Position numbers and translations under genes: made by a program
In this document: piece by piece, positions 1,953 to 62,302 of the stretch
How positions within the stretch are numbered: the first letter of the stretch is position 1
Layout of the letters: every line of letters begins with the position of its first letter
From: Escherichia coli
GTDB taxonomy: Bacteria; Pseudomonadota; Gammaproteobacteria; Enterobacterales; Enterobacteriaceae
Direction: 5' to 3' (one strand)
DNA length: 64,000 nucleotides
Assembly (NCBI RefSeq): GCF_044324875.1
Contig: NZ_CP172186.1
Notes under the pieces: model-generated
What the model was told of the DNA's origin: nothing
The model's database searches: none
What the model saw: only the letters and a program-made list of their open reading frames with translations

Positions 1953-2699
1953 GTTTTTCCAGCTCTTACGGTGTATTACCTCCGCTTTGTAAAGGCCATT
2001 GATGCTCTCCGCCATCGCGTTGTCATACGAGTCACCAGTACTTCCTGTTGATGCCAGTAATCCGGCTTCCTTAAGCCGCTGTGTGTAGGCCAGCGATACA
2101 TACTGAGAACCTTTATCACTGTGATGGACTGTGCCGGACGGTCGACGGGCCCATAACGCCTGCTCCAGAGCATCCAGCACGAATGTCGTTTCCATAGACG
2201 ATGAGACCCGCCACCCCACGATGTATCCGGCAAACACATCAATGATGAACGCCACATAGACGACCCCCTGCCATGTGCTGACGTAAGTAAAATCAGCCAC
2301 CCACAACTGGTCAGGACGTTCTGCCACAAACTGACGGTTTACGCGGTCGCCTGCGGCAACGGCTTTCCGGCTGACGGTAGTGCGGACCTTTTTACCCCGG
2401 AGAACACCGGCAAGTCCCATAACCGCCATGAGGCGCGCCACTGTACATCTGGCTACCCTGATTCCTTCCCGTAACAACTGACGCCAGACTTTACGCACAC
2501 CGTATACCTGATGATTCCCATCGTATACGCGCAGTATCTCTTTCTTCAGCCAGTCATCGCGCTGCGCACGGGCACTGCGTTTATAAGGATGATGTCGCTG
2601 TTGCTGACAGTGGTAATACGTTGACGGGGCAATATGTAGTTCACTGCATACCGGTCCGACCCCGTACAGCTTACGCAGCTTATCCAGCAGTGGCATCAC
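1953..2699 (-). pseudogene. IS3-family transposase OrfB, C-terminally truncated
   Basis: About 95 percent identical to orfB at 15556-16401 up to ...EVIHRKSWKN, then reads into IS66 sequence (tracked ORF 1899-2699). Confidence 0.8.
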
Positions 2700-3022
2700 T
2701 TTTTCCAGAGGCGGTCGAACTCCGCCTTCGCAAAATAAGCGGAAGCCTGGCGAAGGATATCGTTACTGCGGCGCAGTTCACGATTTTCACGTTCCAGCTC
2801 TTTCAGACGCTGACGTTCAGCGGTGGTGAGCCCGCCATCACCGCCTCCGGTATCCCGCTCATGCTGGCGTACCCAGACACGCAGAGTCTCCGGTGTACAG
2901 CCAATCTTTGGGGCAATGGAACAAATTGCCGCCCACTGTGAGTCATATTCGCCCTGACTTTCCAGAACCATACGAATCGCCCTCTGACGGACTTCGGGGG
3001 AAAAACGAGTATTTTTAGTCAT
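2696..3022 (-). CDS. IS3-family transposase OrfA (HTH)
   Basis: 108 aa [15 protein letters not shown]..., near-identical to 15208-15534 and 58909-59235. Confidence 0.9.
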
Positions 3023-3962: not shown

Positions 3963-4384
3963 CCTCGCGCATACAGCCGGGCAGTGACGTCATCGTCTGC
4001 GCGGAAATGGACGAACAGTGGGGCTATGTCGGGGCTAAATCGCGCCAGCGCTGGCTGTTTTACGCGTATGACAGGCTCCGGAAGACGGTTGTTGCGCACG
4101 TATTCTGTGAACGCACGATGGCGACGCTGGGGCGTCTTATGAGCCTGCTGTCACCCTTTGACGTGGTGATATGGATGACGGATGGCTGGCCGCTGTATGA
4201 ATCCCGCCTGAAGGGAAAGCTGCACGTAATCAGCAAGCGATATACGCAGCGAATTGAGCGGCATAACCTGAATCTGAGGCAGCACCTGGCACGGCTGGGA
4301 CGGAAGTCGCTGTCGTTCTCAAAATCGGTGGAGCTGCATGACAAAGTCATCGGGCATTATCTGAACATAAAACACTATCAATAA
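3881..4384 (+). CDS. insB: IS1 InsB (expressed as InsAB' by frameshift)
   Basis: 167 aa, overlapping insA in -1 frame. Confidence 0.9.
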
Positions 4385-10042: not shown

Positions 10043-10087
10043 CACATCCCCGTCAATACGGCCCTCGCTGTACGCTTACGTCTTAGG

Positions 10088-10436
10088 ACCGGAGAAACGC
10101 AGACGGCGTACCACACAGGAAAAGATCGCAATTGTTCAGCAGAGCTTTGAACCGGGGATGACGGTCTCCCTCGTTGCCCGGCAACATGGTGTAGCAGCCA
10201 GCCAGTTATTTCTCTGGCGTAAGCAATACCAGGAAGGAAGTCTTACTGCTGTCGCCGCCGGAGAACAGGTTGTTCCTGCCTCTGAACTTGCTGCCGCCAT
10301 GAAGCAGATTAAAGAACTCCAGCGCCTGCTCGGCAAGAAAACGATGGAAAATGAACTCCTCAAAGAAGCCGTTGAATATGGACGGGCAAAAAAGTGGATA
10401 GCGCACGCGCCCTTATTGCCCGGGGATGGGGAGTAA
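10088..10436 (+). pseudogene. insC: IS2 insC (OrfA), split by the IS66 insertion after codon 6
   Basis: ATGATTGATGTCTTAGGG at 7621-7638 encodes MIDVLG; remainder [18 protein letters not shown]... resumes at 10088. Confidence 0.85.
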
Positions 10437-11299
10437 GCTTAGTCAGCCGTTGTCTCCGGGTGTCGCGTGCGCAGTTGCACGTCATTCTCAGACGAACCGA
10501 TGACTGGATGGATGGCCGCCGCAGTCGTCACACTGATGATACGGATGTGCTTCTCCGTATACACCATGTTATCGGAGAGCTGCCAACGTATGGTTATCGT
10601 CGGGTATGGGCGCTGCTTCGCAGACAGGCAGAACTTGATGGTATGCCTGCGATCAATGCCAAACGTGTTTACCGGATCATGCGCCAGAATGCGCTGTTGC
10701 TTGAGCGAAAACCTGCTGTACCGCCATCGAAACGGGCACATACAGGCAGAGTGGCTGTGAAAGAAAGTAATCAGCGATGGTGCTCTGACGGGTTCGAGTT
10801 CCGCTGTGATAACGGAGAAAAACTGCGAGTCACGTTCGCGCTGGACTGCTGTGACCGTGAGGCACTGCACTGGGCGGTCACTACGGGCGGCTTCAACAGT
10901 GAAACAGTACAGGACGTCATGCTGGGAGCGGTGGAACGCCGCTTCGGCAACGAGCTTCCGGCGTCTCCAGTAGAGTGGCTGACGGATAATGGTTCATGCT
11001 ACCGGGCTAATGAAACACGGCAGTTTGCCCGGATGTTGGGGCTTGAACCGAAGAGCACGGCGGTGCGGAGTCCGGAGAGTAACGGCATAGCAGAGAGCTT
11101 CGTGAAAACGATAAAGCGTGACTACATCAGTGTCATGCCCAAACCAGACGGGTTAACGGCAGCAAAGAACCTTGCAGAGGCGTTCGAGCATTATAACGAA
11201 TGGCATCCGCATAGTGCACTGGGTTATCGCTCGCCACGGGAATATCTACGGCAGCAAGCCAGTAATGGGTTAAGTGATAACAGGTGTCTGGAAATATAG
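10394..11299 (+). CDS. insD: IS2 InsD (OrfB, DDE transposase)
   Basis: 301 aa [21 protein letters not shown]... Confidence 0.9.
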
Positions 11300-11563
11300 G
11301 GGCAAATCCAAAAAATACTTAGGAATAATTTATGTAAAACAGGTTGTCGTCTTCATGATTTAAACGCAGTACATATATATACTCTATAATAAATACAGGG
11401 AGTATCACGAGACGTCTGGATAAGAGGAATAACCAGAATAAATTGGTAAGGAATAAAGACACTTATTTCTATTGAGAAAAAACATTTATCCTGATGTGAT
11501 TAGTATCAATGAAATAATGTGCTTGTATGGTTGATAAAAATGCATCACTAAAGAAAAAACAGT

Positions 11564-15207: not shown

Positions 15208-15534
15208 ATGACTAAAAATACTCGTTTTTCCCCCGAAGTCCGTCAACGGGCAGTTCGTATGGTTCTGGAAAGCCAGGGCGAATATGACTCACAATGGGCG
15301 GCAATTTGTTCCATTGCTCCAAAGATTGGCTGTACGCCAGAGACCCTGCGTGTCTGGGTTCGCCAGCATGAGCGGGATACCGGGGGCGGTGATGGTGGGC
15401 TCACCACCGCTGAACGTCAGCGTCTGAAAGAGCTGGAACGCGAAAATCGTGAACTGCGCCGCAGTAACGATATCCTTCGCCAGGCTTCCGCTTATTTTGC
15501 GAAGGCGGAGTTCGACCGCCTCTGGAAAAAATAA
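15208..15534 (+). CDS. IS3-family transposase OrfA
   Basis: 108 aa [26 protein letters not shown]... Confidence 0.9.
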
Positions 15535-15555
15535 TGCCACTGCTGGATAAGCTGC

Positions 15556-16401
15556 GTGAGCTGCAGTGAGCTGCATATTGCCCCGTCAACGTATTACCAC
15601 TGTCAGCAACAGCAGCATCATCCTGATAAACGCAGCGCCCGTGCGCAGCGTGATGACTGGCTGAAGAAAGAGATACAGCGCGTATACGATGAAAATCACC
15701 AGGTGTACGGTGTGCGTAAAGTCTGGCGTCAGTTGTTACGGGAAGGTATCAGAGTGGCCAGATGCACTGTGACACGTCTTATGGCGGTTATGGGTTTTGC
15801 CGATGTTCTCCGGGGTAAAAAGGTCCGCATTACCGTCAGCCGGAAAGCCGTTGCCGCAGGCGACCGCGTAAACCGTCATTTCGTGGCAGAACGTCCTGAC
15901 CAGCTGTGGGTGGCTGATTTTACTTACGTCAGCACATGGCAGGGCTTTGTTTATGTGGCGTTCATCATTGATGTGTTTGCCGGATACATCGTGGGATGGC
16001 GGGTCTCCTCGTCCATGGAAACGACATTCGTGCTGGATGCACTGGAGCAGGCGTTGTGGGCCCGTCGTCCATCTGGCACCATCCATCACAGCGATAAAGG
16101 CTCTCAGTATGTATCGCTGGCCTACACGCAGCGGCTTAAGGAAGTCGGATTACTGGCATCAACAGGGAGCACAGGCGACTCGTATGACAACGCGATGGCG
16201 GAGAGCATCAATGGTCTTTACAAGGCGGAGGTAATACACCGTAAGAGCTGGAAAAACCGGACAGAAGTGGAGCTGGCTACACTCACGTGGGTGGACTGGT
16301 ATAACAATCGACGATTGCTGGAAAGGCTGGGCCATACTCCCCCGGCAGAAGCAGAAAAAGCTTATTATGCTTCCATCGGAAACAATGATCTGGCAGCCTG
16401 A
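15556..16401 (+). CDS. IS3-family transposase OrfB (DDE; made as OrfAB fusion by -1 frameshift)
   Basis: 281 aa; tracked start is an alternative codon downstream of the frameshift window. Confidence 0.85.
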   Translation: MSCSELHIAPSTYYHCQQQQHHPDKRSARAQRDDWLKKEIQRVYDENHQVYGVRKVWRQLLREGIRVARCTVTRLMAVMGFADVLRGKKVRITVSRKAVAAGDRVNRHFVAERPDQLWVADFTYVSTWQGFVYVAFIIDVFAGYIVGWRVSSSMETTFVLDALEQALWARRPSGTIHHSDKGSQYVSLAYTQRLKEVGLLASTGSTGDSYDNAMAESINGLYKAEVIHRKSWKNRTEVELATLTWVDWYNNRRLLERLGHTPPAEAEKAYYASIGNNDLAA

Positions 16402-36690: not shown

Positions 36691-37030
36691 ATGTCGCCGC
36701 AGGCTCCGCTTTACTCGGCCATGCGGGGCATGGCCTTGTGGGTTTTCAGTTATGTGGCCTCAGCGTCGTGTGCGGGCTGTGCCGTGCCTCCATCGTAGCC
36801 GGGCTTCTGCGGGCGGGTTGCAAGGTAAGGTGAACCGCTGCGGTCACCCGGTCCCTCCTTCCCGTCTGCCGTGATTTTCCGGTCGTTCACCCGCTCAGAT
36901 TTCGCGGTCTCACCCTCCAACTCCCGCCAGCCGTGTGCGTCAGGCTGCGGCTTCCCTTGCGCCCTTGCAACCCTGCAGGCCCGGCAAAGATGGAGGCACG
37001 GCACCGCCCGGTGTCGCGGAATATGTGAAC
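36691..37030 (+). repeat. GC-rich direct repeat family A, copy 1 (candidate single-strand promoter/ssi element upstream of klcA)
   Basis: About 340 bp, roughly 95 percent identical to 48927-49265; dense inverted repeats. Confidence 0.6.
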
Positions 37031-38299: not shown

Positions 38300-38870
38300 C
38301 TTACACATGCGCCCCTTCGGCTCCCGGCTGCCTGGCGGCATCCGGTCGTCAGGCCCGACTCCGACAGGCAGCTGCTGGCGCACCCGCCAGTCTCCGCCGA
38401 ACCCGCTGGCGCGGTTTCGGGCTGTCGCTACGGTCCGATGCGTGAAAACCCGGGCTTGCAGCGACCGTTCCGGTCGCGCCGCCTCTGTCGCGCCGTGACC
38501 TGCGCTCCCTGCACACCTGACGGTGTGTGAGGAAACTGCGCCTGATGGCGCAGCAGTCCTCCCTCCTGCCGCCACCTCTGCGGCCTGTTTCCCGCTGTGG
38601 ACTTTCCGGGGGGCAGACGTAACCCCCTCCCGTTCCATCTGTCCAGGGTGAGATGCACCGGCCACAAAATTTTTAGCCATGAACCCGGCAAAAAATTTTG
38701 CGTCCGCCCCCGGACAGCTGCCCCGTGAGGCGGTAAACGGGCCCCCATCGGAAAGGTCCACTGCGGGGAGAAACCCCTGTGAAGTGGACGGCAGGAGGAG
38801 CTTTCGCTCCTCTGAAGGGGCACATGAACGTCCCGTCGCCGGTATCCGGTTTATCTCACATCTTTCAGTC
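38300..38870 (+). repeat. GC-rich direct repeat family B, copy 1 (upstream of ssb)
   Basis: Shares long near-identical blocks with 49960-50500 and 53020-53370 (e.g. CTTCGGCTCCCGGCTGCCTGGCGGCATCCGGTCGTC, GGAAAGGTCCACTGCGGGGAGAAACCCC). Confidence 0.6.
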
Positions 38871-38881
38871 AGGAGGTTCTT

Positions 38882-38920
38882 ATGAGTGCACGTGGTATCA
38901 ACAAGGTCATCCTCGTCGGG
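38882..38920 (+). CDS. ssb: ssb exon 1 (codons 1-13: MSARGINKVILVG)
   Basis: ATG 38882 preceded by AGGAGG; coding sequence interrupted by intron beginning GTGCG at 38921. Confidence 0.75.
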
Positions 38921-41581
38921 GTGCGCCGTTGAAGCGCGGTGTTTTATGGAGTGTTGCCTGAAAAGCAACATGGCTTAGTGGTATAGCCATTGCATACTGT
39001 GGTTAGCCTTGCTTGGTAACAGGCTCGGAGATCCTGAAAAGGAGAGGTGAACATAGCATCCACAGAAAAGGGTGGTGAATATGGAAATCGTTATAAGTAT
39101 CACCATTCAATGCAAGATGTATATGGATAAACTGGGTTTGTTGAAGTCGAGATCTATGTGGGAAACAGGAAACCAATAACGCAGAACGATTGAAGCGTTA
39201 TTCCCGTACTAGCACAAGAAATCCGTCCGACGTTGATTGTGACCACTCTAACGGGCCAGCTATTGATGAAATAGTTAAACGATCGAAAGACATCCTAAGT
39301 ACATCGCATCTCCACACCGTGAAACTACGGGACTACCTAAACTGGATTTATACCCAGCATGGTAGCGGAGTCTCCATAGTACTCAAGGTCGGCCTGTAAT
39401 GGGTTCCGGCAGTCCGCATTATACGGAAGCAGCAAAGGTATAAATCAACCGGAAGGAAGATGAAAGCCTCACAGTGCTGCGGGGAAGGGAGACAGTTGTT
39501 AGATACATCAATCTCTAAGAGGAGGGTTAGCCAATGCTGCCTGATGAACTTGAGAAAAGATTAGATGGAATTGAGGATGCTTCAAAAAAAGGGTATCCAG
39601 TACGTAATCTATACAAAATTGCGTGTGAGCCCGGACTGTGGCTGCAAGCCTACGTGAATATACGGGCCAATGCAGGTGCACTGACTCAAGGTGTATCAAC
39701 AGATACCATTGATGGCTTTTCTATCGAAAGAGCAGAGAAGCTGGCAAAAACATTGCGGAGTAGAGAATACGTAGCGAAACCTGTACGCAGAGTTCAGATC
39801 CCAAAAAAGGACGGAAAAACCAGACCGCTGGGGATTCCAGGTGGAGACGATAAACTGGCGCAAGAAGTAGCAAGAATTATTCTGGAAAGGGTTTATGAAC
39901 CAGTATTCTCTGAACACTCTCATGGATTCAGACCAAAACGTTCGTGTGAAACTGCGCTCAGATCTATTCGTCCAGTCTGGAACGGAGTTAAATGGATCGT
40001 GGATGTTGATATCAAAGGTTTCTTTGACAATATCCCCCACAAACTATTGCTGAATACACTGGCAGAGAAAATTAAGGATAAGAATTTCCTGAAATTAATC
40101 GAACAGTGGCTGAAGGCAGGATATGTGGACAATTGGAAATACCATCGCTCATATTCTGGCACGCCACAAGGTGGGATAATTTCTCCCTTACTGGCAAATA
40201 TATACCTCGACAAACTGGACCGTTTTGTAGAACAGAATTTAATTCCTGCATATACAAGCGGTACAAAACGAAGAGCGAATCCAGATATGAACAGGCTGGC
40301 CCATAAGATTCATAAACTACGAAAGAAAGTAGACGGTATGGCAACTGATTCTGAATCAGAAAAAGAAGCCATAAAGAAAGAAATTGAACGACTGCTTGAA
40401 GAAAAACGTTCTATACCATCTCAGGTCATGAACGATCCAAACTTCAGGCGTATGTACTATGTTCGATATGCTGATGACTTCGTAATCGGTGTCATCGGCT
40501 CGAAGAAAGATGCTGAACATATATCAAGACAGGTCAGAAACTTTATTACTACTTCACTGGGATTGGAAGTTAATGAAGCAAAGACCAGGATCCGCCATAT
40601 CTCAGAAGGAGTTAATTTTTTAGGCTATGAAATCAGACAGGCAGATGCAAAGAAATTGCTGAAGCAGAAAATGCAAGGGCGGCACGCTCTCCGGAGATCC
40701 ACCACAGGAATTGTGCAGCTCTTCGTTCCTGACAATATAGCCGCTAAATTTTGTCACCAAAAGAAATATGGCTGTTATGAGAATGTGAAGGCTGTACATC
40801 GTTCAAGTCTACAAAATCTCAGTGAAGCTGAAATTGTTCTGACTTTCAACGCGGAAATGCGCGGATTGGCGAACTACTACAGTCTGGCGCTGGACATGAA
40901 ATATAAATTATCAAAATTATATTTCATATGGCAAATAAGCCTTTTTAAGACCCTGGCGAATAAACGACGTAGTTCAGTGAATAAAGTCGCCAAATCGCTA
41001 CGGCAAAATAATGGAGATCTGGCTATTACCGTTCAGGCCAAAAATGGATCCCGAAAGATTGAGGTTTTCAAACTCAAACATGTCAATCGCAACCGAACAA
41101 CGATTGTCGATACGGAACCGAGAACCGCACATATCACAACCCGCACAACAGAGATCATGCGTCGATTAGGGGCAAGGATCTGCGAGTATTGTGCGAAGAC
41201 TGGGCGCTGCGAAGTACATCATGTCAGAAAGCTAAAAGACCTGAAGAAAGGTCGTAAGGCCGGATATAAACCCAGCTTGTGGCAACTAATGATGATCGCA
41301 CGCCGCCGGAAAACGATGATTTTGTGCGCAAGTTGCCACGACAAGTTACATAGCGGAAAACTACCCGATTTGAGACAGGAAAAGGGAAGAATACTCCTGC
41401 AACCACCTGTCTCAAGCGGGGATTCTGCTAAATGAGTTTATCCCCAATAAGCTAGCAATGGAGAGCCGTATGCACTGAAAGGTGCACGTACGGTTCGGAG
41501 GGGGGGTAACGGTGATCTAACTCAAGATAAGCAGGACATATTCGCCATTTATCTTGAAAGACCACACGTACCCTACCCTAC
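38921..41581 (+). mobile_element. Group II intron (2661 bp) inserted in ssb
   Basis: 5' GTGCG, 3' ...AC; domain V-like hairpin GAGCCGTATGCACTGAAAGGTGCACGTACGGTTC at about 41462; encodes RT/maturase/HNH protein; flanking exons splice in frame. Confidence 0.85.
39534..41435 (+). CDS. Group II intron-encoded protein (reverse transcriptase - maturase - HNH endonuclease)
   Basis: 633 aa; RT motifs incl. YADDFVIGV; C-terminal HNH CEYC...HHV...CASCHDKLH. Confidence 0.9.
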   Translation: MLPDELEKRLDGIEDASKKGYPVRNLYKIACEPGLWLQAYVNIRANAGALTQGVSTDTIDGFSIERAEKLAKTLRSREYVAKPVRRVQIPKKDGKTRPLGIPGGDDKLAQEVARIILERVYEPVFSEHSHGFRPKRSCETALRSIRPVWNGVKWIVDVDIKGFFDNIPHKLLLNTLAEKIKDKNFLKLIEQWLKAGYVDNWKYHRSYSGTPQGGIISPLLANIYLDKLDRFVEQNLIPAYTSGTKRRANPDMNRLAHKIHKLRKKVDGMATDSESEKEAIKKEIERLLEEKRSIPSQVMNDPNFRRMYYVRYADDFVIGVIGSKKDAEHISRQVRNFITTSLGLEVNEAKTRIRHISEGVNFLGYEIRQADAKKLLKQKMQGRHALRRSTTGIVQLFVPDNIAAKFCHQKKYGCYENVKAVHRSSLQNLSEAEIVLTFNAEMRGLANYYSLALDMKYKLSKLYFIWQISLFKTLANKRRSSVNKVAKSLRQNNGDLAITVQAKNGSRKIEVFKLKHVNRNRTTIVDTEPRTAHITTRTTEIMRRLGARICEYCAKTGRCEVHHVRKLKDLKKGRKAGYKPSLWQLMMIARRRKTMILCASCHDKLHSGKLPDLRQEKGRILLQPPVSSGDSAK

Positions 41582-42064
41582 CGTCTGGGCAATGATCCGG
41601 AAGTCTGTTACATCCCCAACGGGGGCGCAGTGGCAAACCTGCAGGTCGCCACGTCAGAAAGCTGGCGCGACAAACAGACGGGGGAGATGCGGGAGCAGAC
41701 GGAATGGCACCGCGTGGTGCTGTTCGGCAAGCTCGCGGAAGTGGCTGGTGAATATCTGCGCAAGGGCGCGCAGGTCTACATCGAGGGGCAACTCCGTACC
41801 CGTAGCTGGGAGGATAACGGTATCACCCGTTACGTCACTGAAATTCTTGTTAAGACCACGGGCACCATGCAGATGCTGGGGAGTGCACCACAGCAGAACG
41901 CTCAGGCGCAACCGAAGCCTCAGCAGAATGGGCAGCCACAGAGTGCTGACGCGACGAAAAAAGGTGGCGCGAAAACGAAAGGCCGTGGACGTAAGGCCGC
42001 GCAGCCGGAGCCTCAGCAGCCGTCTGAACCCGCGTATGACTTCGATGACGACATTCCGTTCTAA
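41582..42064 (+). CDS. ssb: ssb exon 2 (plasmid single-stranded DNA-binding protein, codons 14-173)
   Basis: [35 protein letters not shown]...DDDIPF (acidic C-terminal tail). Confidence 0.85.
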
Positions 42065-48926: not shown

Positions 48927-49265
48927 ACGTCGCCGCCGGCTCCGCTTTTACCCGGCCATGCGGGGCATGGCCTTGTGGGTTTTCAGCTCTGTGGCCTCAG
49001 CGTCGTGTGCGGGCTGTGCCGTGCCTCCATCGTAGCCGGGCTTCTGCGGGCGGGATGCAAGGTAAGATGAACCGCTGCGGTCACCCGGTCCCTCCTTCCC
49101 GTCTGCCGTGATTTTCCGGTCGTTCACCCGCTCAGATTTCGCGGTCTCACCCTCCAACTCCCGTCAGCCGTGCGCGTCGGGCTGCGGCTTTCCTTGCGCC
49201 CTTGCATCCCTGCAGGCCCGGCAAAGATGGAGGCACGGCACCGCCCGGTGTCGCAGAACATGTGA
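48927..49265 (+). repeat. GC-rich direct repeat family A, copy 2 (upstream of ardA)
   Basis: Near-identical to 36691-37030. Confidence 0.6.
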
Positions 49266-49959: not shown

Positions 49960-50500
49960 GACACCCTTCGGCTCCCGGCTGCCTGGCGGCATCCGGTCGT
50001 CGGCCCGACTCCGACAGGCAGCTGCTGGCGCACCCGCCAGTCTCCGCCGAACCCGCTGGCGCGGTTTCGGGCTGCCGCTACGGTCCGATGTCTGAAAAAC
50101 CAGGCCTGCAGCGACCGTTCCGGTCGCGCCGCCCCTGTCGCGCCGGAAACGGCGCTCCCTGCACACCTGACGGTGTGTAAGGCCACTGCGCCTGATGGCG
50201 CAGTCAACCCTTCCGCCGCCACCCCTGCGGCCTGTTTCCCGCTGTGGACTTTCCGGGGGCTGAAGCGGCCACAACACGGGGCAGCCGTCCAGGGGAGAGA
50301 TGTACCAGCCACAAAACTTTTTGCCGCAGGCGTCAAAAACTTTTGCGTCTGCCCCCGGACAACTGCCCCGTGCCGTGGCAGTCGCTGCCCCATCGGAAAG
50401 GTCCACTGCGGGGAGAAACCCCGAAGAAGTGGACGGCAGAAGGGGCTTTCGCCCCTCCGGGGGAGCAACCGGTCGGCCCGGCGACCTGATTCAGCAGAAG
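49960..50500 (+). repeat. GC-rich direct repeat family B, copy 2
   Basis: See 38300-38870. Confidence 0.6.
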
Positions 50501-58908: not shown

Positions 58909-59235
58909 ATGACTAAAAATACTCGTTTTTCCCCCGAAGTCCGTCAACGGGCAGTTCGTATGGTTCTGGAAAGCCAGGGCGAATATGACTCACAATGGGC
59001 GGCAATTTGTTCCATTGCTCCAAAGATTGGCTGTACGCCAGAGACCCTGCGTGTCTGGGTTCGCCAGCATGAGCGGGATACCGGGGGCGGTGATGGTGGG
59101 CTCACCACCGCTGAACGTCAGCGTCTGAAAGAGCTGGAACGCGAAAATCGTGAACTGCGCCGCAGTAACGATATCCTTCGCCAGGCTTCCGCTTATTTTG
59201 CGAAGGCGGAGTTCGACCGCCTCTGGAAAAAATAA
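58909..59235 (+). CDS. IS3-family transposase OrfA
   Basis: Identical to 15208-15534 product. Confidence 0.9.
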
Positions 59236-59256
59236 TGCCACTGCTGGATAAGCTGC

Positions 59257-60102
59257 GTGAGCTGCAGTGAGCTGCATATTGCCCCGTCAACGTATTACCA
59301 CTGTCAGCAACAGCAGCATCATCCTGATAAACGCAGCGCCCGTGCGCAGCGTGATGACTGGCTGAAGAAAGAGATACAGCGCGTATACGATGAAAATCAC
59401 CAGGTGTACGGTGTGCGTAAAGTCTGGCGTCAGTTGTTACGGGAAGGTATCAGAGTGGCCAGATGCACTGTGACACGTCTTATGGCGGTTATGGGTTTTG
59501 CCGGTGTTCTCCGGGGTAAAAAGGTCCGCATTACCGTCAGCCGGAAAGCCGTTGCCGCAGGCGACCGCGTAAACCGTCATTTCGTGGCAGAACGTCCTGA
59601 CCAGCTGTGGGTGGCTGATTTTACTTACGTCAGCACATGGCAGGGCTTTGTTTATGTGGCGTTCATCATTGATGTGTTTGCCGGATACATCGTGGGATGG
59701 CGGGTCTCCTCGTCCATGGAAACGACATTCGTGCTGGATGCACTGGAGCAGGCGTTGTGGGCCCGTCGTCCGTCTGGCACCATCCATCACAGCGATAAAG
59801 GCTCTCAGTATGTATCGCTGGCCTACACGCAGCGGCTTAAGGAAGTCGGATTACTGGCATCAACAGGGAGCACAGGCGACTCGTATGACAACGCGATGGC
59901 GGAGAGCATCAATGGTCTTTACAAGGCGGAGGTAATACACCGTAAGAGCTGGAAAAACCGGACAGAAGTGGAGCTGGCTACACTCACGTGGGTGGACTGG
60001 TATAACAATCGACGATTGCTGGAAAGGCTGGGCCATACTCCCCCGGCAGAAGCAGAAAAAGCTTATTATGCTTCCATCGGAAACAATGATCTGGCAGCCT
60101 GA
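59257..60102 (+). CDS. IS3-family transposase OrfB
   Basis: 281 aa. Confidence 0.85.
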   Translation: MSCSELHIAPSTYYHCQQQQHHPDKRSARAQRDDWLKKEIQRVYDENHQVYGVRKVWRQLLREGIRVARCTVTRLMAVMGFAGVLRGKKVRITVSRKAVAAGDRVNRHFVAERPDQLWVADFTYVSTWQGFVYVAFIIDVFAGYIVGWRVSSSMETTFVLDALEQALWARRPSGTIHHSDKGSQYVSLAYTQRLKEVGLLASTGSTGDSYDNAMAESINGLYKAEVIHRKSWKNRTEVELATLTWVDWYNNRRLLERLGHTPPAEAEKAYYASIGNNDLAA

Positions 60103-60935: not shown

Positions 60936-61073
60936 AATTCCTCCTGGTGACTTATCCGTGTTATGTCTTTAATCTGTATCCCCTTCGTTGCTATGCCTCC
61001 GGGATATCAGGTATTACCTTTCGAAGAATTTTATAAAAAACCACCTGTGCAGAGGGAAAGAGTGGATTTGCCC

Positions 61074-61979
61074 CTATATTTCCAGACATCTGTTATCACT
61101 TAACCCATTACAGGCCCGCTGCCGCAGATATTCCCGTGGCGAGCGATAACCCAACGCACTATGCGGATGCCATTCGTTATAATGCTCGAACGCCTCTGCA
61201 AGGTTCTTTGCTGCCGTTAACCCGTCTGGTTTGGGCATGACACTGATGTAGTCACGCTTTATCGTTTTCACGAAGCTCTCTGCTATGCCGTTACTCTCCG
61301 GACTCCGCACCGCCGTGTTCTTCGGTTCAAGCCCCAACATCCGGGCAAACTGCCGTGTTTCATTAGCCCGGTAGCATGAACCATTATCCGTCAGCCACTC
61401 TACTGGAGACGCCGGAAGCTCGTTGCCGAAGCGGCGTTCCACCGCTCCCAGCATGACGTCCTGTACTGTTTCACTGTTGAAGCCGCCCGTAGTGACCGCC
61501 CAGTGCAGTGCCTCACGGTCACAGCAGTCCAGCGCGAACGTGACTCGCAGTTTTTCTCCGTTATCACAGCGGAACTCGAACCCGTCAGAGCACCATCGCT
61601 GATTACTTTCTTTCACAGCCACTCTGCCGGTATGTGCCCGTTTCGATGGCGGTACAGCGGTTTTTCGCTCAAGCAACAGCGCATTCTGGCGCATGATCCG
61701 GTAAATACGTTTGGCATTGATCGCAGGCATACCATCAAGTTCTGTTTGTCTGCGAAGCAGCGCCCATACCCGACGATAACCATATGTGGGTAGCTCTCCG
61801 ATAACATGGTGTATACGGCGAAGCACATCCGTATCATCCGTGTGACGGCTGCGGCGGCCGTCCTTCCAGTCATCGGCTCGTCTGAGAATGACGTGCAACT
61901 GCGCACGCGACACCCGGAGACAACGGCTGACGAAGCTTACTCCCCATCCCCGGGCAATAAGGGCGCGTGCGCTATCCAC
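61074..61979 (-). CDS. insD: IS2 InsD
   Basis: 301 aa. Confidence 0.9.
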
Positions 61980-62302
61980 TTTTTTGCTCGCCCATATTCA
62001 ACGGCTTCTTTAAGGAGTTCATTTTCCATCGTTTTTTTGCCGAGCAGACGCTGGAGTTCTTTAATCTGCTTCATGGCGGCAGCAAGTTCAGAGGCAGGAA
62101 CGATCTGTTCTCCGGCAGCCACAGCAGTAAGACTTCCCTCCTGGTATTGCTTACGCCAGAGAAATAGCTGGCTGGCTGCCACACCATGTTGCCGGGCAAC
62201 AAGGGAGACCGTCATTCCCGGTTCAAAGCTCTGCTGAACGATAGCGATCTTTTCCTGTGTAGTACGCCGTCTGCGTTTCTCCGGCCCTAAGACATCAATC
62301 AT
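61937..62302 (-). CDS. insC: IS2 InsC
   Basis: [24 protein letters not shown]...; ATG at 62302. Confidence 0.9.

Follow-up and report, generated by a model that had tools for sequence, protein, structure and literature searches.

A group II intron of the E.c.I11 type between codons 13 and 14 of a plasmid ssb gene in Escherichia coli

What interrupts the ssb gene, encoding a single-stranded DNA-binding protein (SSB), of an Escherichia coli plasmid, and could the gene still provide a full-length product? The question is raised by a 64,000-nucleotide (nt) stretch of contig NZ_CP172186.1 (RefSeq assembly GCF_044324875.1), referred to here as the window, in which an ssb reading frame opens at 38882 on the + strand and proceeds for 13 codons (MSARGINKVILVG) before SSB-like coding ends at 38920 and the sequence from 38921 reads GTGCGCCG. 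The SSB frame picks up again at 41582, immediately after an element with the 3' end GTACCCTACCCTAC (...CCCTAC) at 41581. A sequence-only reading of the window had proposed that ssb is split between codons 13 and 14 by a group II intron carrying a 633-amino-acid (aa) open reading frame (ORF) with reverse transcriptase (RT), maturase and HNH domains, and its coordinates and sequences for the split gene all proved correct when re-read in the window. The analyses described below support the assignment of the element as a complete group II intron inserted in ssb. Our favoured interpretation, to which we give a probability of roughly 85%, is that a complete and apparently mobile intron of the LtrA type (group IIA), an allele of the intron E.c.I11, retrohomed between codons 13 and 14 of ssb in an I-complex (IncK2/Z-like) conjugative plasmid.

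The split gene and its intron

The gene and the inserted element are arranged as follows.

38882-38920, + strand: ssb exon 1, ATG...GGG, 13 codons, matching the start of the intact ssb genes in NZ_CP100501 and NZ_CP032264
38921-41581, + strand: group II intron of 2,661 nt, GUGCG...CCCUAC, minor allele of E.c.I11
41582-42064, + strand: ssb exon 2, 160 codons plus stop (42062-42064), product ending ...DDDIPF

Joining 38920 to 41582 restores an in-frame ssb of 522 nt (173 codons plus stop), as in intact plasmid ssb genes, and the product of the joined gene gave an end-to-end match to the plasmid-type SSB model NF010292 (366.6 bits, cut-off 265); solved enterobacterial SSB structures could likewise be aligned along its entire length. 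Among the plasmids of PLSDB, the closest backbone belongs to the IncK2/Z plasmid pLH50-c-A (NZ_CP100501), in which ssb is uninterrupted. When 38921-41581 was left out, the window was 100% identical to pLH50-c-A over 3,522 nt, comprising 1.5 kb upstream, ssb itself and 1.5 kb downstream, with zero nucleotide differences in the 522-nt joined gene. The split of ssb is therefore not a matter of chance, and the insertion is precise, recent on that backbone and free of a target-site duplication. The intact ssb of NZ_CP032264, used as a second empty-site comparison, is collinear across the exon junction, and comparison with these two intact genes pins the insertion point to exactly 38920/41582. Codon 22 of the SSB (41606-41608) is Cys (TGT), in place of the Arg (CGT) found in the other plasmid SSBs compared; the same Cys is present in pLH50-c-A, and this change is therefore older than the intron insertion.

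Within the intron, the ribozyme domains and the intron-encoded protein are placed as follows; the limits of domains I to III are approximate and were taken from the RNAalifold consensus and pair counts of nine relatives.

38926-39330, + strand: domain I
39333-39365, + strand: domain II
39370-39493, + strand: domain III
39521-39525, + strand: Shine-Dalgarno sequence GGAGG of the intron-encoded protein
39534-41435, + strand: intron-encoded protein of 633 aa in domain IV, with RT, maturase (X) and HNH endonuclease domains
41463-41496, + strand: domain V, 34 nt with AGC triad, 2-nt bulge and GAAA loop, from Rfam RF00029 and folding
41499-41579, + strand: domain VI, from the minimum free energy (MFE) fold, with the bulged branch-point A41575 at 7 nt from the 3' splice site

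The boundary sequences, 5' GUGCG at 38921 and 3' AC at 41581, fit the group II rule of 5' GUGYG and 3' AY, and both are kept in all the relatives compared. Rfam family RF00029 (Intron_gpII) matched 41461-41581 with 67.4 bits (gathering score 40, E 4e-11), and the hairpin picked out earlier as domain V-like is contained in this match at 41463-41496 and has a conserved fold. None of the Rfam D1-D4 families was matched at a permissive threshold, at which domain V gave the only matches. The 3' 146 nt of the intron, covering domains V and VI, folded with z = -5.3, leaving A41575 as the sole unpaired base near the 3' end. Every pair of domain V is kept in eight relatives, with the sequence varying only beside the loop, and the branch-point A of domain VI is unpaired in all eight. 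Single-sequence MFE folding of domains I to III was uninformative (z = -0.74), and relatives were therefore collected and analysed comparatively through an alignment of nine intron 5' halves. The resulting consensus of domains I to III contains 164 pairs, of which 84 show compensatory changes (10-13 in controls with slid partners; none of 500 shuffles reached the observed value), and 95.4% of its cells pair versus 36-42% when the partners are slid by 1-3 columns. Group II secondary structure, on which the sequence-only reading depended, is thus present, as evidenced in the Rfam match of domains V and VI and in the covariation of domains I to III.

The 633-aa ORF contains the Pfam domains RVT_1, Intron_maturas2 and AI2M-like_HNH, accounting for all three activities named in the sequence-only reading, and a YADD motif is present in its translation. 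Its best match among solved structures is LtrA (5g2x; residues 25-604, E 5.5e-119), and proteins of IIC and IIB introns match it in the RT part only. A different origin of the ORF was considered, namely that it comes from another retroelement, such as a retron, a diversity-generating retroelement (DGR) or a defence RT, with the continuity of the exons arising from coincidence or an assembly artefact. The ORF does show weak sub-threshold matches to the models for Drt3a (65.1 versus a cut-off of 200), retron St85 (56.6 versus 235) and Drt2 (50.1 versus 390), as expected of any RT, but these scores are far below the cut-offs, whereas the NCBIfam group II RT/maturase model TIGR04416 passes (310.7 bits versus 300). 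The same ssb/intron junctions recur in hundreds of independent assemblies, and the identical empty site in pLH50-c-A, the domain V/VI match and the covariation in domains I to III likewise speak against such an origin. It is refuted by the model scores, the ribozyme structure, the recurring junctions and the empty site, and we give it practically no weight; judged by these scores, the RT is a group II maturase, neither a retron nor a DGR enzyme.

Exon recognition

The exon-binding sites (EBS) of the intron, the intron-binding sites (IBS) of the exons and the delta elements were located as follows.

38910-38913, + strand: IBS2, UCCU, exon positions -11 to -8, pairing with EBS2 at 39167-39170
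38914-38920, + strand: IBS1, CGUCGGG, exon positions -7 to -1, pairing 7/7 with EBS1, including one G-U
39167-39170, + strand: EBS2, AGGA, in the loop of a small hairpin at 39160-39174
39224-39225, + strand: delta, CG, directly 5' of EBS1, pairing with exon positions +1/+2
39226-39232, + strand: EBS1, UCCGACG, in the terminal loop of a covarying hairpin at 39213-39241 of the consensus fold
41582-41583, + strand: delta', CG, the first two bases of ssb exon 2

The segment CGUCCGACG at 39224-39232 can form nine continuous base pairs (bp), one of them G-U, with exon positions -7 to +2 (CGUCGGG/CG), and EBS2 pairs at 4/5 positions in the window. The search for EBS1, EBS2 and delta against IBS sequences near 38905-38925, suggested by the sequence-only reading, accordingly gave a 9-bp pairing for EBS1/delta and a 4-bp pairing for EBS2. 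Position 311 in EBS1 covaries with exon position -6 in 9/9 sequences, being C:G with Val codons and U:A with Ile; delta covaries with the start of exon 2 (permutation P = 0.006), being G:C if exon 2 begins with C and U:A if it begins with A; and EBS2 covaries with the exon at three positions across the nine relatives (permutation P = 1.5e-4). Delta is situated directly 5' of EBS1, in place of an EBS3-IBS3 pairing, which is the IIA arrangement. The intron was assigned to the group IIA/mitochondrial-like class of LtrA type on the basis of the structure match and this delta arrangement.

Other candidates were tried in the search for exon-binding sites. The motif AGGGUG at 39069-39074, offering 6 bp to exon positions -13 to -8, was dropped because it forms the 5' strand of the compensatory helix 12; covariation with the exons is seen instead in the loop AGGA at 39167-39170. 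The segment UUUGUUGA at 39137-39144 could form 8 bp with exon positions -23 to -16 and was passed over: its distance from IBS1 is too great, it is conserved, and the complementarity is missing in the Ktedonobacteraceae relatives. A blind column-wise scan for exon-complementary 4-7-mers, in which gapped columns were skipped, was too noisy to be used.

E.c.I11 and its relatives in ssb genes

By sequence comparison, the intron is a minor allele of the already catalogued E.c.I11; both the kind of intron and the kind of host gene are familiar, and the ssb context leaves this classification unchanged. The name, which is that of the Zimmerly group II intron database, was given to the intron of the sequence type 131 (ST131) plasmid pEC958 by Phan et al. 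2015 (PMC4398462), where ssb is unmentioned. The two copies have the same length (2,661 nt), with 18 differences (99.3% identity), an identical intron-encoded protein and the same ssb insertion point; the pEC958 copy occupies an F-type exon (GUC GGU) and the window copy an I-complex exon (GUC GGG). All seven differences inside the ORF are synonymous, and ten are found in the 5' ribozyme part, two of which fall within EBS1 (U306 and G309 in the window, C and U in pEC958; positions 4306 and 4309 of the pEC958 locus, corresponding to 39226 and 39229 of the window). A full-text literature search found no paper describing an intron in ssb and met the name E.c.I11 in no other paper.

The intron matched 514 plasmids in PLSDB, 494 of them at an identity of at least 99%, and its hosts are largely conjugative plasmids from Escherichia, Salmonella, Klebsiella and Shigella. 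Of 5,426 complete E. coli genomes, 436 carried it, and 564 of the 573 places at which it occurred there were on plasmids; nine places are on chromosomes. Practically all full-length copies are at the ssb site, where junction queries gave 122 records for exon 1 of the I-complex type and 307 for exon 1 of the F type. Empty sites, recognised as records with the exon half only, were estimated from evenly spaced rows at about 1,600 of the I-complex type and about 4,100 of the F type, and approximately 7% of plasmid ssb genes therefore carry the intron. The rarity implied in the sequence-only reading, which had set this location apart from the usual intergenic or mobile DNA, is thus overstated, with hundreds of sequenced plasmids occupied. 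The window represents the minor allele, given that approximately 53 of 442 PLSDB records are at least 99% identical to it in the 5' part. In some related plasmids the same leading/stability region has two or three genes annotated as ltrA, and a 5'-truncated copy of E.c.I11, beginning at intron position 209, adjoins umuD in plasmids of 34-38 kb.

More distant relatives were traced by a word-based protein search and contig look-ups, a scan of genome contigs having given only two loci, and 13 were sampled with protein identities of 49-84%. Eight of the 13 are inserted at the identical ssb codon junction, ...(V/I)G/(R/N/H)LG, and this conservation of the site reaches down to 50% protein identity; the loci with this junction come from Xenorhabdus budapestensis (L005), metagenomic L006/L007, L008, L009, L010, L017 and metagenome-assembled genomes (MAGs) of Ktedonobacteraceae (L012-L014). 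A further relative with its 5' end cut (L011) has only the 3' junction readable, which is consistent with the same ssb site, and in a Rubrobacter MAG (L016) exon 1 resembles an ssb start and exon 2 is not SSB-like. Of the eight independent ssb contexts whose 3' exon could be read, seven keep the exons in frame (window, F-type, Xenorhabdus, L006, L008, L010 and Ktedonobacteraceae), among them relatives with only 54% protein identity, and all seven encode a full-length SSB except L010, where the contig ends first; the eighth is L009, described below. Near several of the split ssb genes are neighbours such as SLT, RadC and DUF3150, which are typically met in conjugative elements.

The remaining hosts differ. 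In two unrelated contigs, L015 and L019 (53% and 49% identity), a gene of the Rad52/Rad22 single-strand-annealing family is split after ...KWDG, with the 5' junctions at 1201 and 1295, respectively, and in L018 (49% identity; position 1406) a gene of the phage-integrase family is split. Together with the ssb hosts, this suggests that the clade of sister introns targets DNA-metabolism genes of mobile elements. A 2.8-kb contig from a 'Clostridiales bacterium' MAG (SFGY01000101.1) shares 99.4% identity with the E. coli plasmid intron and ssb exon 2, and is almost certainly a mis-binned enterobacterial plasmid fragment rather than clostridial DNA.

Proposed expression, splicing and spread

Directly upstream of the split gene lies a strongly folding stretch.

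38440-38880, - strand: non-coding single-stranded DNA (ssDNA) hairpin region upstream of ssb, with a long hairpin fold

As ssDNA this region folds at -127.2 kcal/mol versus -85.0 kcal/mol for shuffles (z = -8.9), and an ssi3/Frpo homologue upstream of ssb is listed for IncI plasmids in a published supplement (PMC10104558). It is probably a single-strand promoter of the Frpo/ssi type serving ssb and the intron early after transfer, as suggested by the fold and by analogy with related plasmids. A direct repeat (38352-38553 and 50002-50203) overlaps this folding region, and a second (36710-37009 and 48947-49246) also consists of non-coding leading-region stretches; the two pairs, of 93% and 97% identity, are probably paralogous Frpo/ssi-type elements before successive leading-region operons.

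Following this model, ssb and the intron would be co-transcribed from a leading-region promoter, including a single-strand promoter that would fire just after entry into the recipient. The intron-encoded protein would be translated from its own ribosome-binding site, bind the intron and promote lariat splicing at A41575, rejoining the exons and making a full-length SSB of 173 aa possible. The ribonucleoprotein (RNP) of protein and intron could then reverse-splice into intron-less ssb alleles of other plasmids by HNH nicking and target-primed reverse transcription, and such retrohoming into empty sites would account for the occupancy of about 7%. From the anatomy of the locus, SSB production would depend on splicing. 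The competence of the intron in splicing is indicated indirectly by the in-frame exons in seven divergent ssb contexts.

An alternative is that the intron acts as an effective knockout of ssb, being spliced poorly or not at all while the host SSB substitutes, and that it is a neutral hitch-hiker spread by plasmids and exon recombination. We regard this as unlikely, and as more plausible for the mismatched majority allele than for the window copy. EBS1 of the majority (pEC958-type) allele, CCCUACG, pairs only 5/7 with its own F-type exon, with mismatches at -1 and -4, and would suit GU(A/G)GGG; candidate reasons are tolerated mismatches, exon recombination or an unsampled original host. Both alleles are found in both exon types, as recombination would give. 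The current annotation by the Prokaryotic Genome Annotation Pipeline (PGAP) also offers only a truncated ssb or a pseudogene fragment, and plasmid ssb is dispensable in the laboratory. A decayed relative is known as well (L009, 318-2990; 76% protein identity), in which the intron-encoded protein is frameshifted into two ORFs, exon 1 (MASVNKVILVG) is kept and unrelated sequence has taken the place of the 3' ssb exon. These points are countered by the perfect pairing of EBS1 and delta in the window, with EBS2 at 4/5, by the intact ribozyme core and an intact intron-encoded protein under purifying selection (7/7 ORF changes synonymous), and by the in-frame exons of the seven contexts, which specify a complete SSB in every contig long enough to include the stop. 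Moreover, the precise and recent insertion relative to an identical empty site is a signature of retrohoming rather than of decay.

Several of these observations, with others, weigh against retrohoming of a splicing-competent intron as we favour it. The mismatches of the majority allele mean that splicing may be inefficient in many hosts, or that it is recombination between flanking exons, and not retrohoming, by which the intron moves. With host SSB present, plasmid ssb is regarded as dispensable, and intact exons are therefore weaker evidence of splicing than they would be in an essential gene. Across the nine relatives, EBS1 as a whole fitted its own exons no better than permuted ones (P = 0.17), which reflects the conservation of most exon positions and the frequent mismatches at the third-codon positions -1, -4 and -7. 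The literature search found no experimental paper on the splicing or mobility of E.c.I11, and the proposed promoter role of the upstream region is drawn from its fold and from the literature on related plasmids.

A broader reading, which we hold tentatively and at somewhat less than even odds, is that E.c.I11 is the enterobacterial branch of an old LtrA-like lineage specialised on one junction of mobile-element ssb genes, in the first beta-strand, and that making the RNP on entry into the recipient couples its spread to conjugation. The conservation of the ssb site among the relatives is observed directly. Transcription of the first operon in a new recipient would lead to the RNP being made at entry, which would couple intron spread to conjugation. 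If this reading is true, the RNP would be produced in the first operon transcribed from ssDNA in recipients of IncF/I-complex plasmids, and the supply of plasmid SSB would be delayed, or would require splicing, for the roughly 7% of plasmid ssb genes that are occupied, pandemic ST131 plasmids being among the carriers. The conservation of the site across phyla, and the finding that about 1 in 14 plasmid ssb genes is affected, may not have been noted before.

Introns of the LtrA-like type inside conjugation-related genes are an established pattern, exemplified by Ll.LtrB of Lactococcus lactis (group IIA) in the relaxase gene ltrB. Ll.LtrB lies within a gene of a conjugative element, and the product of that gene requires splicing. 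E.c.I11 shares with it a protein that can be aligned with LtrA along its full length (E 5.5e-119) and exon recognition by a delta directly 5' of EBS1. The host gene differs, being the leading-region ssb instead of the relaxase gene, as do the host phyla, and EBS2 of E.c.I11 is short (4-5 bp), unlike that of Ll.LtrB. Splicing and retrohoming have been demonstrated for Ll.LtrB and are predicted for E.c.I11.

Two further plasmid introns are similar in context. FII-33 plasmids carry a 2,343-bp group II intron in a 77-aa hypothetical ORF downstream of ycjA (PMC8765060, PMC6052338), and IncI1 plasmids carry an intron with an LtrA homologue in yffB, upstream of ssi3 and ssb, which formed a new junction during experimental evolution (PMC10104558). 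Like E.c.I11, both are in or near leading or stability regions of IncF/IncI plasmids, and they have been used as lineage markers; they differ from E.c.I11 in length and host ORF, and neither splits ssb. The introns of FII-33/IncF33 plasmids and of the IncI1 plasmid p1ESBL were considered as the same element as E.c.I11 and ruled out, being different introns at other sites.

These assignments bear on annotation. PGAP labels the intron ORF ltrA and calls ssb as a truncated coding sequence (CDS) that begins at a non-ATG codon 4 nt past the intron, exon 1 appearing as a pseudogene fragment in some records, and in hundreds of RefSeq plasmids ssb is recorded as a truncated CDS or pseudogene fragment beside "ltrA". 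The split plasmid ssb is most likely intact once spliced despite this annotation; leading-region inventories and pan-genome counts calling such plasmids ssb-negative or truncated would be wrong if the intron is spliced. Conjugative resistance plasmids with an intron in their earliest-expressed operon also offer a natural system for asking whether intron mobility is coupled to conjugation. The intron, which would make SSB conditional on splicing, could show whether plasmid SSB matters, and the polymorphism of EBS1 at third-codon positions provides a natural series of matched and mismatched targets.

Other repeats were observed in the window. Three elements of the insertion sequence (IS) family IS3 contain a frameshifting pseudoknot of the apical loop-internal loop (ALIL) type, at 2625-2741 (- strand), 15489-15575 (+ strand) and 59190-59276 (+ strand). 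Two of them are direct copies (repeats from 15152 and 58853), identical over the 300 nt compared and 43.7 kb apart, which flank the whole leading region including ssb and could be a composite-transposon-like or recombination-prone arrangement; the third (2625-2741) is inverted relative to these two. An inverted repeat of 1,231 nt, 97% complementary between 10080-11310 and 61063-62293, has a 301-aa ORF in each arm (10394-11299, + strand; 61074-61979, - strand) and is probably another IS pair.

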